A DNA stretch of 52,836 nt from a virus. The stretch is taken from IMG/VR virus record IMGVR_UViG_3300025738_000002; one strand, 5' to 3'. A model generated the notes under the pieces. The model searched no databases. It was not told the DNA's origin and was given only the letters and a program-made list of their open reading frames with translations. The translations under genes and the position numbers were made by a program. This document shows positions 25,682 to 52,836 of this stretch, in pieces (position 1 is the stretch's first letter; every line of letters begins with the position of its first letter).

Positions 25682-26098
25682 TTAAGAATAAGTTCTTGAT
25701 TCTATATACTTTTTAACTGGCTTATCTGATCCCGCATGGTACTCAGAGCAACCATCTTTTTCACGGTCAATAATTAAATTCCCTTCAACTTCCAAAGAAG
25801 CAAACCCAACCACTAGAAATATAAATACAGTTTGATCAACAACAACATCAGCTAGACCTACCGCGCATTTATTTTGCTCAATTGCATTATCGACAGCTTC
25901 TTTTACGTTTGGAGTCCCAATCGGGATTATAATAATTGGCACAGAGTCTTCATCTTTAACCCTGCCACCTACGACTAAACCATTTGATTTTAGATTCATA
26001 TTCTTACTTGACGCTATAGTTAAATCTGCAATTCTAGTGGTACAGCCAGATAAAGTTAAGGCAGAAATAACAGCAATGCAGGTTAGTAATTTTTTCAT
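25682..26098 (-). CDS. Lipoprotein (candidate receptor-masking / superinfection-exclusion moron)
   Basis: MKKLLTCIAVISALTLSGC is a signal peptide with lipobox LSGC. The gene is convergent with the last fibre gene. Confidence 0.8.
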   Translation of the reverse strand: MKKLLTCIAVISALTLSGCTTRIADLTIASSKNMNLKSNGLVVGGRVKDEDSVPIIIIPIGTPNVKEAVDNAIEQNKCAVGLADVVVDQTVFIFLVVGFASLEVEGNLIIDREKDGCSEYHAGSDKPVKKYIESRTYS

Positions 26099-26134
26099 TT
26101 TTTTCTCATTGTTTAGTTAATTAGTTTATAAATA

Positions 26135-26422
26135 TTAAAATTCGTAATCCACTTCTATATATTGTTCTACGCCACCATGTAACCTTTCGATTACATCATT
26201 ACGCCTATCGTTAAACAGCCCCATACAACACCCTGCCCCGAATGCCGGTGATACCTTAGAGCTAGGACATTTCATAATCTCTTCTGCAATTGAGCAGTTT
26301 GATTGCCCTTTATCATCAAAGACAACATACACGCACCCGTTATGATCATCAGCCTTCTTACCAAATCCGCAAGGTGATTTTAAGCAGCAAAAACCAGAGT
26401 TAACACATGCTTTAATCAGCAT
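26135..26422 (-). CDS. Cysteine-rich hypothetical protein (95 aa, 11 Cys)
   Basis: CC and C-x-C clusters (GFCCLKSPCGFG, GAGCCMG). Overlaps the upstream gene, as expected in an operon. Confidence 0.55.
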   Translation of the reverse strand: MLIKACVNSGFCCLKSPCGFGKKADDHNGCVYVVFDDKGQSNCSIAEEIMKCPSSKVSPAFGAGCCMGLFNDRRNDVIERLHGGVEQYIEVDYEF

Positions 26423-26630
26423 CAGACCACACGCCGCCTATTCTAGTTGAAAGCAACTTACCTTCCACTGCTGTCTCGCGAATATAAATAATAGTGTGCT
26501 TATTATCCGCATTACGAGCTGCTTTCGCTTTAGCCTTTGATAAGTTTTCCGCCTCGTAAAACTCATCAAATTCTAGCTTAACTTTGTTTTTAACTACTAT
26601 GTCGAATTCCATTATAGAAACCTCGCGCAA
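26412..26630 (-). CDS. Hypothetical protein (72 aa)
   Basis: Overlaps both neighbours (coupled). I recognise no domain. Confidence 0.5.
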   Translation of the reverse strand: MREVSIMEFDIVVKNKVKLEFDEFYEAENLSKAKAKAARNADNKHTIIYIRETAVEGKLLSTRIGGVWSDAD

Positions 26631-27580
26631 TTTCTGTCTGCGTAGTTTTCTTTTCTAACCTGATCTCTTGATTTACCGGTTGTCATCATCTGCTGCTTTC
26701 TGAAACCCCGACCTTGGAATTCATACGCATCCATTTCGAATGTTGGAAGGTGGTCATACTTATTAGTCCAAACGGTTTTCATCGCATTATAAGAGTTGTA
26801 TCCATGTACAAATGACGCATCAACGCACACCGCTAAATTAAATCTTTCTGCATTGACAGCCATTGCAGGTGAAGATGTTGCGGCCAACAGGCCAGCGCCG
26901 ATTAATAATTTCTTCATTTTAGTTTCCTTTAGTTTTTTAGTTTGCTTAACAACAGGCTTAACCGGTGCTGCAGTTTCTTTGTTAGTTGATAAAAGACTTA
27001 GCGCAATCGTTGTCGCTATGGTCAGCAGTTCAATAATCACAGCGGCGGCCACGGCAATTTGTTTACCAAACTGGTCAGCAATGCTATCCGTTGTTAATGA
27101 TGCACGGGTATCAATAAGAGATGCTATATCGTTTTCAATAGATGCAGCCTTGTCGTTTAACCGTTCACGCTTGGTTATGTAGTTAACAGGCAGGCCAGCC
27201 GCTTGCTCTGTCACACGTTTAGCTTGGGTCGAAAGCATCTCTATGCGCTGATTTATCGCTAGAAACTCTGCTGATTCCTTACGATTCTTATCGAATCCGG
27301 TATCAACAGCGATAAATGACGCTGTAAAGCTCATGGCGATCAACAGTAGTCCGATTGAAGATAACACATAGCCACGCATTCTTTTGTCCGCCTTGAACGC
27401 ATACAGGACGATCATTGGAAGAAAGAATTTGATAAATTCGAATAATATGCCGATCTTGCCTAATGTAGGCGATAGGTCTGACATAAATTGATAAGTAAGC
27501 GTTCCGCTGTAATAAGCAACTACAGCACCAGTGATAAAGATTGACGCTTTTAAAAAATTAGCATTATGTGTATCATTCAT
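26612..27580 (-). CDS. Multi-pass membrane protein with a central coiled coil and a C-terminal domain preceded by a signal-peptide-like segment
   Basis: Three N-terminal hydrophobic helices, a coiled coil (AINQRIEMLSTQAKRVTEQA...), a fourth TM helix, then MKKLLIGAGLLAATSSPAMA with its own SD. Confidence 0.65.
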   Translation of the reverse strand: MNDTHNANFLKASIFITGAVVAYYSGTLTYQFMSDLSPTLGKIGILFEFIKFFLPMIVLYAFKADKRMRGYVLSSIGLLLIAMSFTASFIAVDTGFDKNRKESAEFLAINQRIEMLSTQAKRVTEQAAGLPVNYITKRERLNDKAASIENDIASLIDTRASLTTDSIADQFGKQIAVAAAVIIELLTIATTIALSLLSTNKETAAPVKPVVKQTKKLKETKMKKLLIGAGLLAATSSPAMAVNAERFNLAVCVDASFVHGYNSYNAMKTVWTNKYDHLPTFEMDAYEFQGRGFRKQQMMTTGKSRDQVRKENYADRNCARFL

Positions 27581-27784: not shown

Positions 27785-27803
27785 TGACACACACCGTGTG
27801 TCA
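27785..27803. promoter_or_regulatory. Palindromic box TGACACAC-ACC-GTGTGTCA (8-bp arms)
   Basis: Perfect inverted repeat overlapping the stop codon of the ParG-like gene. Confidence 0.65.
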
Positions 27804-28175
27804 CTTCCATTCTGTACTTGTTTCTTCTTCTATTAACGCCTCAAGTCCGATGGCGATAGCTTGGATTAAAACGCCATGCGTTGTATTTGGTGATATATTG
27901 CTATTTGCAGCAAACCAAGTTGCAACTTCATAATGCCATTCAGGGCAACGGACATTTGTTCTAGTGCCGATTTGAGGCAGCGCCTTCTCATCGCTCTTCG
28001 CCTGAAAAGATTTAGCTAATGAATCATCGCGCCAAGGATACTTAACAGCATTCTCGCTACCCTTTGAATCATCAGAGCCAAGCATAAAAGTGCTTTCTTC
28101 ATTAGTTAATTCGTCATCAAGTTTGTTTTTATTCTTCTTCTTCATGATTCCGTCTAACGATGGTTTATTACTCAT
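27801..28175 (-). CDS. Putative centromere-binding protein (ParG/ParB analogue of a type-Ib system)
   Basis: Small and charged, with a disordered N-terminus. It is translationally coupled downstream of ParA. The C-terminal TRTNVRCPEWHYEVATWFAANSNISPNTTHGVLIQAIAIGL is compatible with a ribbon-helix-helix fold. Confidence 0.5.
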   Translation of the reverse strand: MSNKPSLDGIMKKKNKNKLDDELTNEESTFMLGSDDSKGSENAVKYPWRDDSLAKSFQAKSDEKALPQIGTRTNVRCPEWHYEVATWFAANSNISPNTTHGVLIQAIAIGLEALIEEETSTEWK

Positions 28176-28810
28176 TTGAAAATAACCTTAAATAGTGATT
28201 CAATTTCTTCTTTAGCTTGTTTGTTTTTCATCTCGTAAACACCTTCACCAGTTAAAAGGCAATCACGATAAGCCTTACGATCATAAATATTAGGCGCTAA
28301 TTCGAATACATCAATTTGCTCTAATATTTCTCGCCATTGTCTATTTTCATGTTTATTGGTAACGGATGTATTACACATGTTAAGCATAGCAACAGCCCTA
28401 AGCTTCGGGTTTATCTCTGCCACTTCTTCTAAAGCTTCCAACATGTCCGGTATAGTTCCAAAATCACCCTTTGACGGTTTGAAAGGCATGACCATAACAT
28501 CTGCCACCATCATTGCTGATCTCATTTCATCTGAGTTACGGCCGGCAACATCAACTACCACATGATCATACTTTTTAGCTAGTTCAACAATCGTGTTTTT
28601 AATCTTCCCGTATTTCTGAACTAAGGGGATATACTTTAAATCGCTTTCGTTCTCTTCTCTATCTTCCGTCCAGTTAGACGCTGTTTCCTGCCTATCAGAA
28701 TCTAATATCACCAAGCTAGACTTCATATTGTTTTTTACATGCGCGGCAAGATTTACGCATATAGTTGACTTACCGCAACCACCCTTTCTATTACCAAGTA
28801 AAATAATCAT
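28172..28810 (-). CDS. parA: ParA-family partition ATPase (small, type Ib)
   Basis: Deviant Walker A LGNRKGGCGKST lies at the N-terminus when the start is ATG 28810. The track start at 28870 would run through the operator palindrome. Confidence 0.85.
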   Translation of the reverse strand: MIILLGNRKGGCGKSTICVNLAAHVKNNMKSSLVILDSDRQETASNWTEDREENESDLKYIPLVQKYGKIKNTIVELAKKYDHVVVDVAGRNSDEMRSAMMVADVMVMPFKPSKGDFGTIPDMLEALEEVAEINPKLRAVAMLNMCNTSVTNKHENRQWREILEQIDVFELAPNIYDRKAYRDCLLTGEGVYEMKNKQAKEEIESLFKVIFK

Positions 28811-28839
28811 GATCCAGATCCCATTTATTAACCATAACG

Positions 28840-28858
28840 TGACACACAGTGTGTGTCC
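28840..28858. promoter_or_regulatory. Palindromic box GACACAC-AGT-GTGTGTC in the parA leader/promoter
   Basis: Perfect 7-bp arms. It lies just downstream of a TATTAT -10-like hexamer on the minus strand. Confidence 0.65.
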
Positions 28859-28891
28859 AATGTGTGCCATAATACACTAAATAGAGGCGTT

Positions 28892-28909
28892 TGACACACA
28901 CCGTGTGTA
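28892..28909. promoter_or_regulatory. Palindromic box TGACACAC-ACC-GTGTGTAA at the parA -35 region
   Basis: Same family. It overlaps a TGTCAA -35-like hexamer (minus strand), 16 nt from TATTAT. Confidence 0.6.
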
Positions 28910-28983
28910 ATTTATTGGTGTTTTATTGAAAATAAAGATCTTGATCAATTATAAAGGATCATATAGGATGCGTTTTGAAGACG

Positions 28984-29020
28984 AAAAAAAAGCCGACTCG
29001 TTAGAATCAGCTTTTCTTTT
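28984..29020. terminator. Bidirectional terminator (A8, then GCCGACTC-GTTA-GAATCAGC, then TTTTCTTTT)
   Basis: An 8-bp stem with two G-U pairs, flanked by an A-run and a T-run. Confidence 0.6.
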
Positions 29021-30039
29021 CAATCGTTTTTTACCAATCAAATAACTCATTCTTGGTCGGATCGTTTTATTTGAAAGGTTACAAGCAGCGTATAGATAGA
29101 GCGCTCAAGAGGTGAGCTGAATTGTATCTATAAGATGTTTTGTCCTGTAATTATATAGACAACTCCTCTTTTAGTCCAATTTAGTTTCAATAAAACCCCT
29201 CTAAAAAACATAGATGCCTGATATTTAAGGTATTTGATTAAATGTTTATCTATCTCTTTTGCAATGAATCCTACAACTTAGAGTGCTTTCGGGGTAAATT
29301 CCCGACTGTAGAACGTCAGCCAGCAAGACCGGATGATTGGAAAAACGATATTTTGTACCTAACCCAGAATGAGCGGATTAGGAAACGCGGTTGCAGTCGT
29401 AGTGGAAAGCGTGAGGGTAGCCCGTGGTAACGATAAACAGAACTGAGCAATATTAATGGCCAGCCACGGAAACACTAGACATGCCACAAACTCAAAAACC
29501 GCTCACAGGATCGATGTTAATAGTATTAACAGACAGTACCCAGTGTGGACGAACGAGGTCTAGGGCATTTTAATGATGCTGAATCGTCCAACTGTTAGCG
29601 CTTAAACGACTAACAGAGTTCACTTACAAAAGTGTACTAATAGTGGCAACCTTTAGCTAAATAGCTAAGGGTAGCTACGCTATTGAGTTTTGGGGGCCAA
29701 TCGCCGTCTTTTAGGTTTCTTTACCAATTAAACTAACGCATCAGCGTTACGTTACGGACGTTGACCACGATGGCAGCCCTTGCAGTTTTGACAAAGAAAC
29801 GTCAAAGCTTCCAGTGCTCATTATCAAACATAGTATCAAATCGATACTATGTCATGCACTGAAATAGATGTGAGACTGACTGAGAGTGTCGTGATTTGAG
29901 TTTTCTTCCTCAAATCTAGGCGACACGGTTTAGGCAGTGGGCAAGCGTAGCGCTGGCAATTTTAAATCAAAACGAATCAAACACATACAACATACATATG
30001 TTTATTGTTTAGCCTGTTTTAGATAAAATATGCTATATC

Positions 30040-30077
30040 GATCACAAACTGATCTCGTATTCGATCAATATCTGATC
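30040..30077. repeat. Four GATC sites spaced 11, 12 and 11 bp apart (helically phased Dam-type sites)
   Basis: GATC begins at 30040, 30051, 30063 and 30074, within alternating TCGATCA / CTGATC units. Confidence 0.8.
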
Positions 30078-30120
30078 ACATATGAATATTAGTATATGAA
30101 CACTATCTGTTCAAATACCT

Positions 30121-30161
30121 GATTAATATTTACCCACAGGGGATATTAATCGATATTAATC
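30121..30161. repeat. Iteron-like 10-mers: GATTAATATT (inverted), then tandem GATATTAATC x2
   Basis: Read directly. They lie 90-130 bp upstream of ATG 30249 in very AT-rich DNA. Confidence 0.7.
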
Positions 30162-30248
30162 AATTTTTTTATTGAGTTCCTTACAAAATATAAACTTTCA
30201 AGTTATCTTATAAAGAATCACTAACCAACAAAATCAGGTATTTAAACT

Positions 30249-31283
30249 ATGAATCTAAATTCAGTGGGTATAACAGACAGGAAGGATATGCTGTGCAAGC
30301 TGCTTTTAAACAAGCAAACCATGCAGCAGATATTTAGAGAATTCGATAGTGAAGAATCATTGGCCAAGTTTAAAGATAAGTTTTTAAATGGGATCGAGGG
30401 CATTATTGATGAGAAGAACAAGGCCGAGTCAGACCGATGGAAGAAAATAGAAGAGTCAACAGAAATATTAAATCTTCTAAAAGAGCGCGGCCTAACCATT
30501 GACGACTTGCACTCAGCAACAAATATTAATCGCTCACGATGCTTAGACACTAAAATACCTATTCACAGAAAGCTAACCCATAAACTAGCCAACCTAGGGA
30601 CTCTAACAAACCCTAAGTACAATGGGGCGTTCTATAATATAGATGGAAAGCTGGTCAACGTGGTCCACCGTCTAGAACCTTCATCGCTTCGTAAAGATAT
30701 GGTAGCGGTAATAAATGCAACTGGCATAACTCGCAAAGAATTCATTCATAACGCTAAACAGTTGTTTTTAGACTTAGAGCAAAACAAAGACGGCGAGATC
30801 CGAAACCCGCCTAATTACATTCGTTCGCAGCAAAAAAAGCCAAAAATAACGCCTCTTATAGATATGGATTTACACTTAGAACACCACGACGACAACGCAG
30901 ATATTCTTAACTCGTTAGATATTGACCAAAGTGACGAGGGTGAGTCTCAACTGCTGTTTCTTGAGCCTAAAGAAACCGCCATCGTTGATCCGGTAGAACA
31001 AGATGAGCAAGTAACAAAACAAAAGCAGCTTACGTCACCACTCAAGCAGGTGATCATAGCGGACCTTGGTAATGTCGTTATTAACACAGATAAGAAAATC
31101 AGCCTAAAACTGCATTACAAAGCAATTGACTACATTCGCGCAGCCTTAAACGGCAAGATGAACTTTATGAAGCTTAAAGGTAGCGGACATTACTGCTTAA
31201 ACGTGGGCCAAACAATTCGCATAATCACCGAAGACAAGCACGATTTCCGCATCATGGACGTTAAAACATTTAATAAACTATAA
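30249..31283 (+). CDS. Hypothetical 344-aa protein (candidate Rep-like or toxin-domain protein; acidic central linker; RelE/ParE-like C-terminal pattern)
   Basis: AT-rich island. C-terminal KLKGSGHYCLNVGQTIRIITEDKHDFRIMDV resembles the RelE/ParE core. I can confirm no domain. Confidence 0.55.
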   Translation: MNLNSVGITDRKDMLCKLLLNKQTMQQIFREFDSEESLAKFKDKFLNGIEGIIDEKNKAESDRWKKIEESTEILNLLKERGLTIDDLHSATNINRSRCLDTKIPIHRKLTHKLANLGTLTNPKYNGAFYNIDGKLVNVVHRLEPSSLRKDMVAVINATGITRKEFIHNAKQLFLDLEQNKDGEIRNPPNYIRSQQKKPKITPLIDMDLHLEHHDDNADILNSLDIDQSDEGESQLLFLEPKETAIVDPVEQDEQVTKQKQLTSPLKQVIIADLGNVVINTDKKISLKLHYKAIDYIRAALNGKMNFMKLKGSGHYCLNVGQTIRIITEDKHDFRIMDVKTFNKL

Positions 31284-31376
31284 ATGCTATTTTGATGCTT
31301 GGAGTAATTTATTTTGATTCCCTATGTTTGTATGGTATATATATAGACATTAGGGCTTCAAAATTAGGTTTTTATA

Positions 31377-32888
31377 ATGGAAAACAACATAATTCTCTAC
31401 AGGTCTTTTGTAGACGGATCGAACATCTCTAAGAAAGAATCAGAGTGGGTTAAGAATTCCGGCTTTGAAAACTTGGGTATTTCGAGGAGGGTAAATAGAT
31501 ACTGCCTCGATTCATTAATATGTATAAAAACATTTATCTATGAGCATTTATTAGAACCTATCACCTTAACCATCTTGATTAGCGAGATGAACTGTATTGA
31601 AAAGCATGACGCATCAAAGGTTTACGAAGAGCTTAAGTTGCTAATAGGAACAGGGGTTAAATTCTCAATCGTAGGTAATGAGACTATATACTCTAGAGAA
31701 AATATATCCGAAGCGATGAATCTCGTCTTGTGCATGTTCGAGCTTTGGGAAGCTAAAAGCGAATCAATCAAAAAATCAAATTCAGCAACTAAGATATGGA
31801 GTAAGAAAAGGGAACTTATAGAGAGGGGAGAAAAGCCAAAGCTCAAAAGTCCGTCATGGTTCTCTTATGACGATATTAATAAAAAATATATTTTAAATGA
31901 TTTATCTGTGTCAGTTAAATTATGCTTTGAAAAGTACCTAGAAACTAAATCAATGTCTGCAACCGCAAAGCTCCTTAATAAGTTAAATGTTAAGACTTTA
32001 GGGTCAGCTAAAGCGTGGGGCCAAACATCAGTTAGGCAGGTTTTAATTAGCCAATCATCATACGGCCTGCTTGAAGCTAGGACATTTCAGTACGATAATT
32101 TTTATCCAGCCGTCATTTCAAAAGAGCTATTTTATTTGGTTCAAGCTGAAATTAAAAAGCGGTCAACAAAAAACACCGAGCCAATAAAGGCAAATTTAAA
32201 GACGGCAAACCTGTTAACTAAGATCGCAAAATGTGGGGTTTGTGGCTCAAGCATATTCATGCACGGAAAAAGAAAAGAGATACTAAATGGCACCATTCAG
32301 GATTATCGATATCTCAATTGTTCTAGCCGTAAATACCATGACAAAAAATGTTCACTGCCTAGCTTTAGATATAAATACGTTGAGGCAATAGTCATCGTTA
32401 TAGCTGGACTGCTTGATAAAATGCCAACGCAAAACGAAACTATTGAACGTGTCGGATACCTTCAAGGTAGGCTGATGGCATTAAAAGAAAGTAAACGATT
32501 ACTAGAGTCTAAAATAGAAACTCTCACCGAAATAATATCAGAATTACCGAGTGATATTATCAAAGAGAAATTAAGAACTAACAGCATGGAATTAGAGGTC
32601 GCTGGCGATGAAATAAGCGAGGTTAAGCAGGAGATATCTGTAATAAATCAGGTTGGTGGCCGTGAAGATCTGTATAAGAAAATCACCGAGCTATCTAAAG
32701 ATTTAACCATTGATGATAATCGAGCGGAATTCATTATTAACCTGTCAAAGATATTTGATATCTGCAATTTTAACGAAGATGGTTCCATTTATATTCAGTC
32801 TATGAAAAATGAGATTAGAGTCAATAAAACCAAGGGCGACGTTAAAATTAACACCCCTGAATTTGAGCTGTCGGTTCACGTATCTTAA
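31377..32888 (+). CDS. Large-serine-recombinase-like protein with apparently degenerate catalytic motifs
   Basis: Recombinase-domain pattern (SMSATAKLLNKLNVKTLGSAKAWGQTSVRQVLISQSSYG), zinc-ribbon (CGVCGSS...YRYLNCSSRKYHDKKC) and coiled coil are present. The N-terminus has YRS instead of Y-x-R-x-S, and NCIEK where DRLxR is expected. Confidence 0.65.
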   Translation: MENNIILYRSFVDGSNISKKESEWVKNSGFENLGISRRVNRYCLDSLICIKTFIYEHLLEPITLTILISEMNCIEKHDASKVYEELKLLIGTGVKFSIVGNETIYSRENISEAMNLVLCMFELWEAKSESIKKSNSATKIWSKKRELIERGEKPKLKSPSWFSYDDINKKYILNDLSVSVKLCFEKYLETKSMSATAKLLNKLNVKTLGSAKAWGQTSVRQVLISQSSYGLLEARTFQYDNFYPAVISKELFYLVQAEIKKRSTKNTEPIKANLKTANLLTKIAKCGVCGSSIFMHGKRKEILNGTIQDYRYLNCSSRKYHDKKCSLPSFRYKYVEAIVIVIAGLLDKMPTQNETIERVGYLQGRLMALKESKRLLESKIETLTEIISELPSDIIKEKLRTNSMELEVAGDEISEVKQEISVINQVGGREDLYKKITELSKDLTIDDNRAEFIINLSKIFDICNFNEDGSIYIQSMKNEIRVNKTKGDVKINTPEFELSVHVS

Positions 32889-33053
32889 TAATTAACCTTG
32901 TTTGAACATCTTTAATCCTGCAGTCTGTATTCAGATTTATGGATAGGTGTTCTTTTAAAATATGGATTGTTACTCAGAAAATGACGAGGTGATCATAGAA
33001 CACCTCAACGTAAAAATTAAGATTATCGACTTTAAAATTAAATAAGCACCACT

Positions 33054-33083
33054 AACCAGTAACTCACGTTACTGGTTTTTTTG
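33054..33083 (+). terminator. Strong terminator AACCAGTAAC-TCAC-GTTACTGGTT followed by T7
   Basis: Perfect 10-bp stem and T-run. Confidence 0.85.
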
Positions 33084-33121
33084 TCGGTTTAAATCAGTTA
33101 CCAAAATTACACGGGAGTTAA

Positions 33122-40965: not shown

Positions 40966-41055
40966 AGAGAATTGGCCGAGTGGCTTATGGTAGCCCCTTG
41001 CTAAGGGGCCGGTGATTAAAATTACCCGTGGGTTCGAATCCTACATTCTCTGCCA
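40966..41055 (+). tRNA. tRNA-Ser (anticodon GCT), class II with a long variable arm, CCA encoded
   Basis: Hand fold: AGAGAAT/ATTCTCT acceptor, GCCCC-TTGCTAA-GGGGC anticodon arm, variable arm GGTGAT-TAAA-ATTACC, T loop TTCGAAT, then G-CCA. Confidence 0.85.
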
Positions 41056-41121: not shown

Positions 41122-41197
41122 GGGCCTGTAACTCAGGGGTTAGAGTGTTCGACTCATAATCGAAGCGTCGCTAGTTCAAATCTAGCTAGGCCCACCA
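41122..41197 (+). tRNA. tRNA-Met (anticodon CAT; elongator Met, or Ile2 if lysidinylated), CCA encoded
   Basis: A perfect 76-nt cloverleaf by hand: GGGCCTG/TAGGCCC, ACTC-AGGGGTTA-GAGT, TTCGA-CTCATAA-TCGAA, GCGTC, GCTAG-TTCAAAT-CTAGC, then A-CCA. Confidence 0.9.
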
Positions 41198-51642: not shown

Positions 51643-52836
51643 ATGTTTAATAAATTAAAGAAATGGCTGGGCCATGAAGAGAAGGCTTACACCGTAGACG
51701 AGTATATCCGAAGAACAACGCAAAACAGAGAATTCGCCGGCGTTAACGTTTCCCCCAGTACATCCCTAAGACAGGCAGATGTGTACGCCTGCATAAAAAT
51801 CATTGCAGAAAGTATCGGTATGATGCCGTTGAAGGTATACAAGCAAGATGAAGATAATTTAGTTGAAGTGCCTAATACGCACCGGCTATACAAAATCTAT
51901 TCAAAACGACCTACTGACTTCGTAACCACGCAAGAGCTAATCGAAACCATAATAACCAACCTACTTACATTCGGTAATTCGTATTGCTACCTGAATCGCC
52001 GTCCTGATGGGAAAGTCGTTGAGATAATCCCATTCCAGCATCCCAACTCTGTTGCGGTGGATATGGACAATCAAGGCCGTGTTTACTACACGTATTCGAC
52101 GAATGACCATCAAACGCGAAACAAGATTTTTGTACAAGATGAGATCTTGCATATCAAGCTTAATTCGCAGAATGGCTACGAAGGTATGTCACCAATCGAT
52201 AAGGCTGCTGAAAGCATCGGTATTAGCATAGCTAACGCCCGTTACACGTCAAAGACCTTTGAAAATGCGGCGATGACTTCCGGTGTCCTGTCAGTGGGTA
52301 ATGACCAAGAACTTACCGACGAACAGTACTCACGACTGCAGGATTCATACGAAGATTACCGAGGTGTTAACGCAGCCGGTAAAATTTTGATTCTTGAAGG
52401 TGGAGCTACGTTCCAAGCGACTAGCCAATCAAATCAGCAAGCTCAAGTTCTTGAGTTGGCCAAGTACAGCAGGGAGCAAATAAGCTCAATTTTCAGAGTG
52501 CCTACGAACATGCTAGGTGATACCGCAGCGCAGACCTACAACAACGTAGAAAACAACGCGATTAACTTCCTTCGTCATACATTACTGCCACACATCACCA
52601 AGATTGAAACGGCACTAAATGACCTTATCGATAACGGTTACGAAGTGAAATTCGACACTAACGAGTTCTTGCGTGGTGACAGTAAAACTCAAGTGGAAGT
52701 ATGCGACGGCCTAGCGAAATTGGGTGCCATTTCAGTTAACGAAATACGAAAGAAATTCGGTATGAATACAGTTGAAGGCGCTGACGTATATCAAGTCATA
52801 ACCAACAACGCAGAATTTGGCACATGGGAAGAAGCA
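51643..52836 (+). CDS. Portal protein, HK97 family (N-terminal about 398 codons; the ORF runs off the window and continues at nt 128-229)
   Basis: ATG at 51643 follows RBS AAGGAAGG. My hand translation is open to the window end (MFNKLKKWLGHEEKAY...REQISSIFRVPTNMLGD...). The gene lies directly after large terminase. It is missing from the ORF track because there is no stop inside the window. Confidence 0.9.
   Translation, partial: MFNKLKKWLGHEEKAYTVDEYIRRTTQNREFAGVNVSPSTSLRQADVYACIKIIAESIGMMPLKVYKQDEDNLVEVPNTHRLYKIYSKRPTDFVTTQELIETIITNLLTFGNSYCYLNRRPDGKVVEIIPFQHPNSVAVDMDNQGRVYYTYSTNDHQTRNKIFVQDEILHIKLNSQNGYEGMSPIDKAAESIGISIANARYTSKTFENAAMTSGVLSVGNDQELTDEQYSRLQDSYEDYRGVNAAGKILILEGGATFQATSQSNQQAQVLELAKYSREQISSIFRVPTNMLGDTAAQTYNNVENNAINFLRHTLLPHITKIETALNDLIDNGYEVKFDTNEFLRGDSKTQVEVCDGLAKLGAISVNEIRKKFGMNTVEGADVYQVITNNAEFGTWEEA
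52710..52836. repeat. Terminal overlap copy 2, identical to nt 1-127
   Basis: Same 127-mer as the window start. The unique genome length is 52,709 bp. Confidence 0.95.

Follow-up and report, generated by a model that had tools for sequence, protein, structure and literature searches.

Serine integrases have been studied intensively as tools for genome engineering, and to our knowledge every characterised member of the group is an active enzyme. A gene of a marine phage in the IMG/VR virus record IMGVR_UViG_3300025738_000002 raises the question of what such a protein is when its active site is gone. The window analysed here is the whole stretch of 52,836 nucleotides in this record, and the gene lies at 31377..32888 on the plus strand, where it encodes a protein of 503 amino acids (aa) resembling large serine recombinases (LSRs). 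An earlier note, made from the letters of the sequence alone, had described the protein as an LSR look-alike with an apparently dead catalytic centre, which could be either a very divergent active integrase or a domesticated protein that binds or synapses DNA. We found that the catalytic residues of this LSR homologue have been lost, and that its remaining domains have been retained and are under selection.

Outside the catalytic domain, the protein has the features of an LSR. Pfam searches identified a recombinase domain (RD), one of the two DNA-binding domains (Recombinase PF07508 at aa 179–262, E=3.9e-14; 31911..32162), and a zinc-ribbon domain (ZD; Zn_ribbon_recom PF13408 at aa 279–340, E=2.4e-9; 32211..32396). 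The Cys4 site of the zinc ribbon was complete (C286, C289, C315, C325), and the conserved RD residues N201, W214, L223, G230, and P244 were present. The AlphaFold2 model, based on an alignment of 99 sequences, had a mean predicted local distance difference test score (pLDDT) of 87.8 and was laid out as an alpha/beta N-terminal domain, helix E, RD, zinc ribbon, two-helix coiled coil, and beta-rich tail. The long helix E covered aa 107–149 (31695..31823) and showed high identity among the closest relatives. The helices of the coiled-coil motif covered aa 354–387 and 393–425 (32436..32651; pLDDT about 87–94), and the C-terminal beta-rich tail, supported by alignment with related proteins, covered aa 446–503 (32712..32885), with modelled strands across 460–502. 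In this model, the coiled coil is predicted to emerge from the ZD and helix E to join the catalytic domain to the RD. A Foldseek search with the model returned LSRs as the best solved structures throughout (SPbeta, LI, phiC31, and Bxb1; E 1e-12 to 4e-5). Of the features that had been read from the sequence by eye, the recombinase-domain pattern and Cys4 ribbon were confirmed by profiles, and the coiled coil was predicted by the model.

The protein has an RD, a Cys4 ZD, a coiled coil, and helix E, but it lacks a recognizable PF00239 catalytic domain. The Resolvase family PF00239 gave no Pfam match in the 503-aa protein, even at E<=1. The PHROG integrase family phrog_95 covered only aa 111–496, and the weak, partial NCBIfam matches to CcrA, CcrB, and XisF were confined to the C-terminal domains. 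The N-terminal remnant (aa 1–106; 31377..31694) was modelled as an alpha/beta fold with pLDDT values of 65–92. The structural check suggested in the earlier note accordingly gave a protein that was LSR-like as a whole, with only a weak match to the isolated catalytic domain of TP901-1 integrase (3bvp; template modelling score 0.51, E=0.43). A small serine recombinase of the resolvase or invertase type (~180–200 aa, with a short helix-turn-helix) was rejected, since the protein is 503 aa long with an RD, a ZD, and a coiled coil, and had no PF00239 or HTH_7-type match.

To say which residues have been lost, the alignment register was fixed by comparison with active-looking sister proteins and with 144 other LSRs. 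The sisters P0007, P0008, P0010, and P0011 contain the motifs Y-x-R-F-S, (E)N(L/I)DRL(G/S)R, and ARANEES..KS.R. The register of the query could be fixed because the sisters have these motifs intact together with the same unusual C-terminal tail, whose motif FNxDGSIxI...KGxVxI is common to the query, P0007, P0008, and P0010. In this register, Y8 of the query corresponds to Y6 of Tn3 and gamma-delta resolvase, S10 sits at the R8 position, and V12 sits at the position of the nucleophile S10, so that Y8-R9-S10-F11-V12 (31398..31412) replaces the Y-x-R-x-S motif. Hence, the YRS(10) singled out in the earlier note is indeed present, but its serine stands where an arginine should be and is not conserved in the clade. 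The reading of N-C-I-E-K in place of D-R-L-x-R was right: N72-C73-I74-E75-K76 (31590..31604) replaces D67-R68-L-x-R71, with N72, C73, and K76 at the D67, R68, and R71 positions. The equivalent of D36 is lost as well, and ~8 residues are deleted after the nucleophile loop, which removes the conserved Q14/Q19 region. Of the six residues crucial in Tn3 resolvase (Y6, R8, S10, D36, R68, R71), only Y6 remains. Mutation of any of these six greatly reduces cleavage and recombination by Tn3 resolvase without abolishing DNA binding (Olorunniji and Stark, PMC2794168).

The lost residues are among the least variable of the family. Among the 144 other LSRs, R68 and R71 were conserved in 100% and D67 in 99% of sequences, and R8 and S10 were invariant in every sequence that covered the N-terminus. 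In the degenerate clade, which comprises the proteins of four phages (the window, P0004 from Moritella sp. PE36, P0002 from a metagenome-assembled genome (MAG), and P0003), position 10 is S/N/A/Y and position 12 is V/V/S/I, with no serine conserved at either, and the R71 position is K/R/E/R; Y8 and R9 are conserved. A custom hidden Markov model (HMM) built from 141 canonical catalytic domains gave 191–202 bits for the sisters P0007, P0008, and P0010, 114 bits for P0005, and 32 bits for the query, with the query, P0002–P0004, and P0009 all within 28–37 bits. The model aligned the query only from node 81 on, the first ~80 profile positions being unalignable, and placed its consensus vLlveslDRLsRe opposite TILISEMNCIEKH, i.e. 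NCIEK facing DRLsR. The profile alignment thus put no Arg or Ser at the catalytic positions, in agreement with the claim of a dead catalytic centre.

The loss is concentrated in the catalytic core. We counted the columns in which the non-degenerate relatives show 85% conservation or more. Of 30 such columns in the core, 5 were kept in the query (25 lost), whereas 22 were kept of the 25 that lie in helix E, the RD, the ZD, and further on. In helix E, the residues E129, S130, K133, S134, and W141 were kept, and two conserved Arg were lost (query E125 and S136). The earlier statement that the E-R pairs of this helix had been replaced therefore holds for the arginines but not for the conserved glutamate E129. 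A separate catalytic subunit acting in trans was also sought, but a six-frame search of the window found no other serine-recombinase catalytic domain.

Although the active site is gone, the gene does not appear to be decaying. Four phages carry intact versions of 503–512 aa that are 54–58% identical, and synonymous sites among them are saturated (proportion of synonymous differences 0.65–0.8). The ratio of nonsynonymous to synonymous substitution rates (dN/dS) was about 0.13 over the whole gene for the least saturated pair, with 0.06–0.09 for helix E, the RD, and the ZD of this pair; altogether, the values for these three parts lay at about 0.06–0.14. Identities inside the degenerate clade were 29–45% in the core, 61–87% in the RD/ZD, and 68–86% in helix E (aa 121–170), while among the sisters P0007, P0008, and P0010 the order was inverted, with 54–56% in the core and 32–43% in the RD/ZD. 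The catalytic core is the fastest-evolving domain of the degenerate clade, at ~4x the rate of the RD and ZD. The control elements of the gene are conserved too. A promoter-like element, TTGATT ... TGgTATATA (31286..31350, plus strand), was kept in 4/4 phages despite the saturated synonymous sites of the coding sequence, and was not flagged by a scan with a simple promoter consensus; its conservation suggests that it is a promoter. The terminator scan found an intrinsic terminator with a 10-bp stem, AACCAGTAAC-loop-GTTACTGGTT, and a T-run (33054..33085, plus strand), and both stem and T-run were kept in 4/4 phages. Together, the promoter-like element and the terminator suggest a self-contained transcription unit. 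Its full length in four diverged phages, the low dN/dS, and these conserved elements argue that the gene is kept by selection.

To place the protein among its relatives, we searched 5.8 billion proteins through an index, with both the single sequence and a profile, and found just four relatives apart from the query. When 1.84 billion representatives were searched exhaustively with a profile, five more came to light (P0007 to P0011), and the scores beyond them dropped steeply to those of ordinary LSRs. An exact look-up of the query protein returned no record. The region had no megablast match among GenBank phages, and tblastn against GenBank phages and PLSDB plasmids gave only distant relatives with <=29% identity, all of them recombinases or integrases where annotated. 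A profile search of genome contigs recovered the known members and nothing further, a scan of metagenome contigs found only distant LSRs, and IMG/VR loci anchored on ParA came from unrelated phages and had no LSR-like gene in their vicinity.

A neighbour-joining tree was built from residues 121–345 only, so that the catalytic domain had no influence on it. The query clade had 100% and the subfamily 89–100% bootstrap support; P0005 grouped with P0008 (74%) and P0009 with the query clade (66%), while a single origin of all degenerate members received 17%. In this tree, the degenerate clade is nested within the active-looking subfamily. The topology and bootstrap values indicate that activity is ancestral and has been lost at least twice.

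The active-looking sisters resemble ordinary prophage integrases. P0007 (WP_248936468.1, Shewanella submarina) and P0008 (EEZ85528.1, Vibrio harveyi 1DA3) belong to the same subfamily as the query, share its length, domain order, and C-terminal beta tail, and likewise lie directly upstream of a Sak4-SSB-helicase module. Unlike the query, they have all catalytic residues, score ~200 bits with the catalytic-domain HMM, stand at prophage borders, and have the core as their most conserved domain; no experimental study of either was found. P0007 is at a chromosome/prophage border in a 401-kb contig (JAKILF010000005.1), with the same replication module downstream as in the window. P0008 adjoins a truncated urocanase gene, hutU, and hutH (ACZC01000073.1, L044 ~9911), and homology to uninterrupted hutU stops ~90 bp upstream of the int start, a breakpoint that marks a candidate attL/attB of the V. 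harveyi prophage. P0005, from Vibrio aestivus, has a damaged yet recognizable catalytic domain and an open reading frame (ORF) shortened to 428 aa, with similarity running on to query residue 494. It lies at the edge of a reduced prophage and, judging from these features, looks like a true relic. This relic is also in the hut locus, adjoining hutC.

The phages of the degenerate clade appear to live differently. The window has an exact 127-bp terminal direct repeat (1–127 and 52710–52836), with the portal gene spanning the junction, which indicates a closed or circularly permuted complete genome of ~52.7 kb. Its siphovirus-like structural and packaging set is complete, with large and small terminase, portal, protease, major head, adaptor, tail tube, and tail fibre genes. 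Directly downstream of the LSR-like gene is a Sak4-SSB-helicase-exonuclease-replication module that includes a 955-aa replication protein (phrog_4913). Between the LSR-like gene and a divergent ParA operon on the other side lie an H-NS-like gene and a non-coding stretch of 1.4 kb. The order ParA operon, gap, variable H-NS-like gene, LSR, Sak4, SSB, helicase is common to the window, P0004, and P0002, and P0003 has the same arrangement as far as its 6-kb contig reaches. The ORFs scanned in the window contained no tyrosine integrase (Phage_integrase) and, with Pfam and PHROGs, no CI/Cro-type helix-turn-helix repressor or antirepressor.

In the assembly of the PE36 isolate, the phage is its own 50.7-kb contig, and the MAG contigs of 52.7–53 kb consist of the phage alone. 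Thus, the degenerate-clade contigs with a ParA operon are phage-only and 50.7–53 kb long, while the active-looking sisters are at prophage borders, and no integrated copy of a degenerate-clade phage was found in the contigs examined. The window combines the features of phage-plasmids, namely structural and packaging genes, ParA and replication functions, and no functional integrase. The ParA operon and the lack of a working integrase suggest that the prophage is most likely maintained as a plasmid (episome).

Taken together, we think it likely that an integrase was inactivated after a switch to episomal lysogeny and has been kept as a sequence-specific DNA-binding, probably DNA-pairing, protein. 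The ancestors would have been ordinary integrases at the prophage edge that inserted the phage into a host gene. The lineage would then have adopted ParA-based episomal maintenance with no working integrase, strand exchange would have become dispensable or even harmful, and the active-site residues would have been lost, while the parts that dimerise (helix E), read DNA (RD and ZD), and link dimers (coiled coil) stayed strongly constrained. As a dimer, the protein would bind at least one att-like site, and it may hold two such sites together without cleavage. Expressed from its own promoter-to-terminator unit, it could help to regulate or maintain the episomal prophage, with its own promoter, the replication operon behind the terminator, and the conserved non-coding blocks near the par operon as candidate targets. 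The binding and bridging of att sites is proposed because the query keeps the separable DNA-binding parts under constraint, and work on other LSRs gives it precedents. An LSR with a Ser-to-Ala substitution (PLE Int S12A) retains specific binding of attP in vitro and, in vivo, stops expression of a reporter as a transcriptional roadblock (PMC9638900). For phiC31 integrase, the C-terminal domain by itself is enough for cooperative binding to att sites and for synapsis of attP with attB via the coiled coil (PMC2724291). By analogy, the 503-aa protein is expected to bind DNA.

Several observations weigh against this explanation. The sample is small, with ~six degenerate sequences among 15 billion proteins, and the link between ParA and the loss of catalysis rests on few genomes. 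No close relative exists in PLSDB or the GenBank phage collection, and the plasmid state is one that we infer. No binding site was found, and the upstream spacer, considered as a place for an attP remnant, did not resemble the attL arm of a sister. The saturated synonymous sites make the dN/dS values imprecise. Finally, the catalytic core is still under some constraint, which we attribute to its probable roles in folding and dimerisation.

The residual constraint on the core is also what an enzyme with a non-canonical site would show, for example one using Ser10 next to the invariant Arg9, which might still integrate the phage or resolve plasmid dimers. In favour of such an enzyme are the conserved Y8 and R9, the serine at position 10 of the query, the retained N-terminal domain with its non-neutral evolution, the benefit that a phage-plasmid would have from multimer resolution, and the location of the partly degenerate P0005 at a prophage edge. 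However, no serine is conserved at position 10 or 12 across the clade, R8, D36, D67, and R68 are all gone, the R71 position varies, and the deletion has removed the region after the nucleophile loop, while single mutations of R8, S10, D36, R68, or R71 already cripple Tn3 resolvase (PMC2794168). With the core evolving fastest and no integrated copy of these phages found, we regard continued activity as highly improbable. The domesticated DNA-binding or DNA-synapsing protein of the earlier note is therefore much better supported than its divergent active integrase, because residue loss is clade-wide, the core is now the least conserved domain, and the ParA phages have no integrated copies. A dimer-resolution remnant, another role suggested there, would require catalysis.

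If the enzyme is dead, the gene could instead be a functionless relic of the switch to plasmid maintenance, decaying slowly in a frame that is still undisrupted. Such a relic would account for the missing catalytic residues, the ~4x faster evolution of the core, the rarity of the family, and the apparently decaying copy in V. aestivus. Neutral decay over this divergence would be expected to bring stop codons and frameshifts, but the frame is intact in four phages with saturated synonymous sites, most of the conserved non-core residues have survived with the Cys4 site among them, dN/dS is low in helix E, RD, and ZD, and the promoter-like element and terminator are conserved; we therefore consider a relic unlikely. 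A function directed at other phages was also considered, in which the protein would act as a dominant-negative exclusion factor that occupies the att sites of relatives or forms inactive mixed tetramers with their integrases. The good conservation of helix E, the dimer/tetramer interface, and of the coiled coil would fit such a factor, as would the active sisters of the same architecture in similar marine hosts (Vibrio, Shewanella, Moritella) and the self-contained transcription unit, which many lysogenic-conversion genes have. On the other hand, the RD/ZD of the degenerate clade are only 44–50% identical to those of the sisters, so a shared site specificity is doubtful, and in every member the gene lies where the ancestral integrase lay, not in a variable hotspot. 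Searches with PADLOC at E<=0.1 found no family for the LSR-like protein or its upstream neighbour, and thus gave no support to the defence component that had been suggested. Exclusion is compatible with the data, but we judge it to be quite unlikely.

Within the preferred explanation of a retained DNA-binding and probably DNA-pairing protein, a more specific role can be proposed tentatively. The protein might be a master regulator that binds att-derived sites of the phage, bridges them through the coiled coil within or between copies, and thereby represses lytic or replication genes or controls copy number or pairing. If so, it would fill the role of a CI-type repressor, which was not found in the genome, and would be the first case in nature of a serine integrase scaffold that has become a regulator which synapses DNA without catalysis.

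The base composition of the gene had been taken as a sign of an AT-rich island, with spot counts of about 33% GC versus 45% in the capsid gene. The capsid value was accurate (45.0%) and the gene is AT-rich, but its actual GC content is 36.0%, compared with 42.4% for the genome, which places it in the lowest 1.4% of windows of the same length. Orthologues in the other phages have 33–34% GC versus about 41.5% downstream, and the active sisters are likewise AT-rich relative to their flanks (e.g. 41% vs 50% in S. submarina). We therefore rejected a recent foreign origin: the AT-richness is shared with the active sisters and is thus a trait of the gene lineage, giving no evidence of recent import.

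The surroundings of the gene contain further conserved elements. Between its stop codon and the terminator is a conserved non-coding block of ~130 nt (32915..33045, plus strand) with ~85–90% DNA identity in three phages; the P0003 contig lacks it. The block has a stable fold (z = -3.96) and may be a small RNA, a 3' untranslated region element, or a protein-binding site; a known RNA was not recognized, with no Rfam match and no covariation among the three sequences. Upstream, the neighbouring gene (30249..31283, plus strand) encodes a protein of 344 aa that has a dimerisation domain of the H-NS type at its N-terminus (PF22470, E=3e-7) and resembles phrog_1525 at its C-terminus. This neighbour has two allelic forms: that of P0003 is 352 aa and 46% identical, and the other two phages have an unalignable 233-aa form that shares a similar N-terminal motif.

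The par and origin-like elements described in the earlier note do lie next to the gene. ParA (28172..28870, minus strand; phrog_164, E=2.6e-41) and a putative 124-aa downstream partner without a family match (27801–28175) form the partition operon (27801..28870, minus strand). The adjacent 1.4-kb non-coding region (28871..30248) looks origin- or centromere-like: GATC sites are clustered in it, one of its hairpins covaries, and there are palindromes where parA starts. The GATC sites cluster at ~28930–29075 (AAAGATCTTGATCAATTAT..GGATC), with an A-run and then a hairpin after them, in a block that is 85% identical to that of the Moritella phage and has an origin-like appearance. Two near-identical palindromes, 28840–28856 (TGACACACAGTGTGTGT) and 28892–28908 (TGACACACACCGTGTGT), straddle the parA start codon and are probably a par operator or centromere; a related motif was found in the MAG phage. 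A conserved hairpin at ~29864–29949, GAGTGTCGTGATTTGAG-loop-CTCAAATCTAGGCGACAC, has an inner stem that covaries between phages (TTGAG/CTCAA vs TAGCG/CGCTA) and is duplicated in the MAG phage. It had no Rfam match and is a candidate structured RNA, e.g. a copy-control or antisense RNA. A 23-nt repeat (29139 and 31327) was considered as a binding site and rejected, because the copy at 31327 is the conserved -10-like promoter element and promoter-type similarity is the simpler explanation.

Elsewhere in the window, two tRNA genes are in the early region (40966–41052 and 41122–41194; Rfam RF00005, 46.6 and 63.8 bits), and the ORF 42172–42684 encodes a type IV pilin-like N-terminus (phrog_3433). 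Beside the par operon is a cluster on the minus strand (25682–27580) encoding a lipoprotein-like protein of 138 aa (phrog_7441), a Cys-rich protein of 95 aa, and a membrane protein of 322 aa; the corresponding slot of the relatives contains outer membrane protein or YadA-anchor genes. The pilin-like ORF and this cluster are possible lysogenic-conversion cargo.

Characterised LSRs (Listeria LI/A118, SPbeta SprA, phiC31, Bxb1, and TP901-1) share helix E, RD, Cys4 ZD, and coiled coil with the query, and the solved structures that matched the model (9dxd, 9y66, 4kis, 9rah, 4bqq, and 9iu9) have 12–22% sequence identity to it; unlike the query, these proteins are active and have the Y-x-R-x-S and D-R-L-x-R motifs. 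The closest proteins in the annotated phage collection were of the YbcK type, from lambdoid coliphages and the DLP12 prophage of E. coli (27% identity over aa 22–340). They have the same RD and ZD architecture, but they match PF00239 (E=8e-19) with all catalytic residues and are located in the nin region of phages that, unlike the window, have their own integrase elsewhere. Among the literature matches listed, we found no paper on a recombinase function of YbcK.

The dead LSRs made in the laboratory, PLE Int S12A and the phiC31 C-terminal domain, are point mutants or truncations of active enzymes. The query belongs to a natural lineage in which most of the active site is gone and the N-terminal domain has been remodelled, and it plausibly works in the way these engineered proteins do. 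Full-text literature searches found no naturally inactive LSR and no lineage that had lost catalysis and been kept by selection. The novelty of the protein is therefore that it is an LSR scaffold without its enzyme.

In cluster A mycobacteriophages, an integrase or a parABS cassette occupies the same locus. Phage-plasmids of the P1, N15, and SSU5 groups resemble the window in having a temperate-type genome, a ParA operon, and no functional integrase. In phage-plasmids and in integrase/partition swaps, the integrase is absent or replaced, whereas the window retains it, inactivated and conserved beside the partition genes. Conversions between phage-plasmids and integrative prophages have been documented for P1-like elements (PMC10879196).

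The family described here forms an evolutionary series in one genomic slot, with active forms at prophage borders, a freshly decaying copy, and an old, conserved, inactive form in ParA phages. It makes testable what becomes of an integrase once a temperate phage gives up integration for plasmid maintenance, and what the DNA-binding and coiled-coil machinery of LSRs does alone in nature. Should the protein turn out to be a regulator or a pairing factor, it would represent a new functional class of the family and a natural sequence-specific module that synapses DNA without cutting it.

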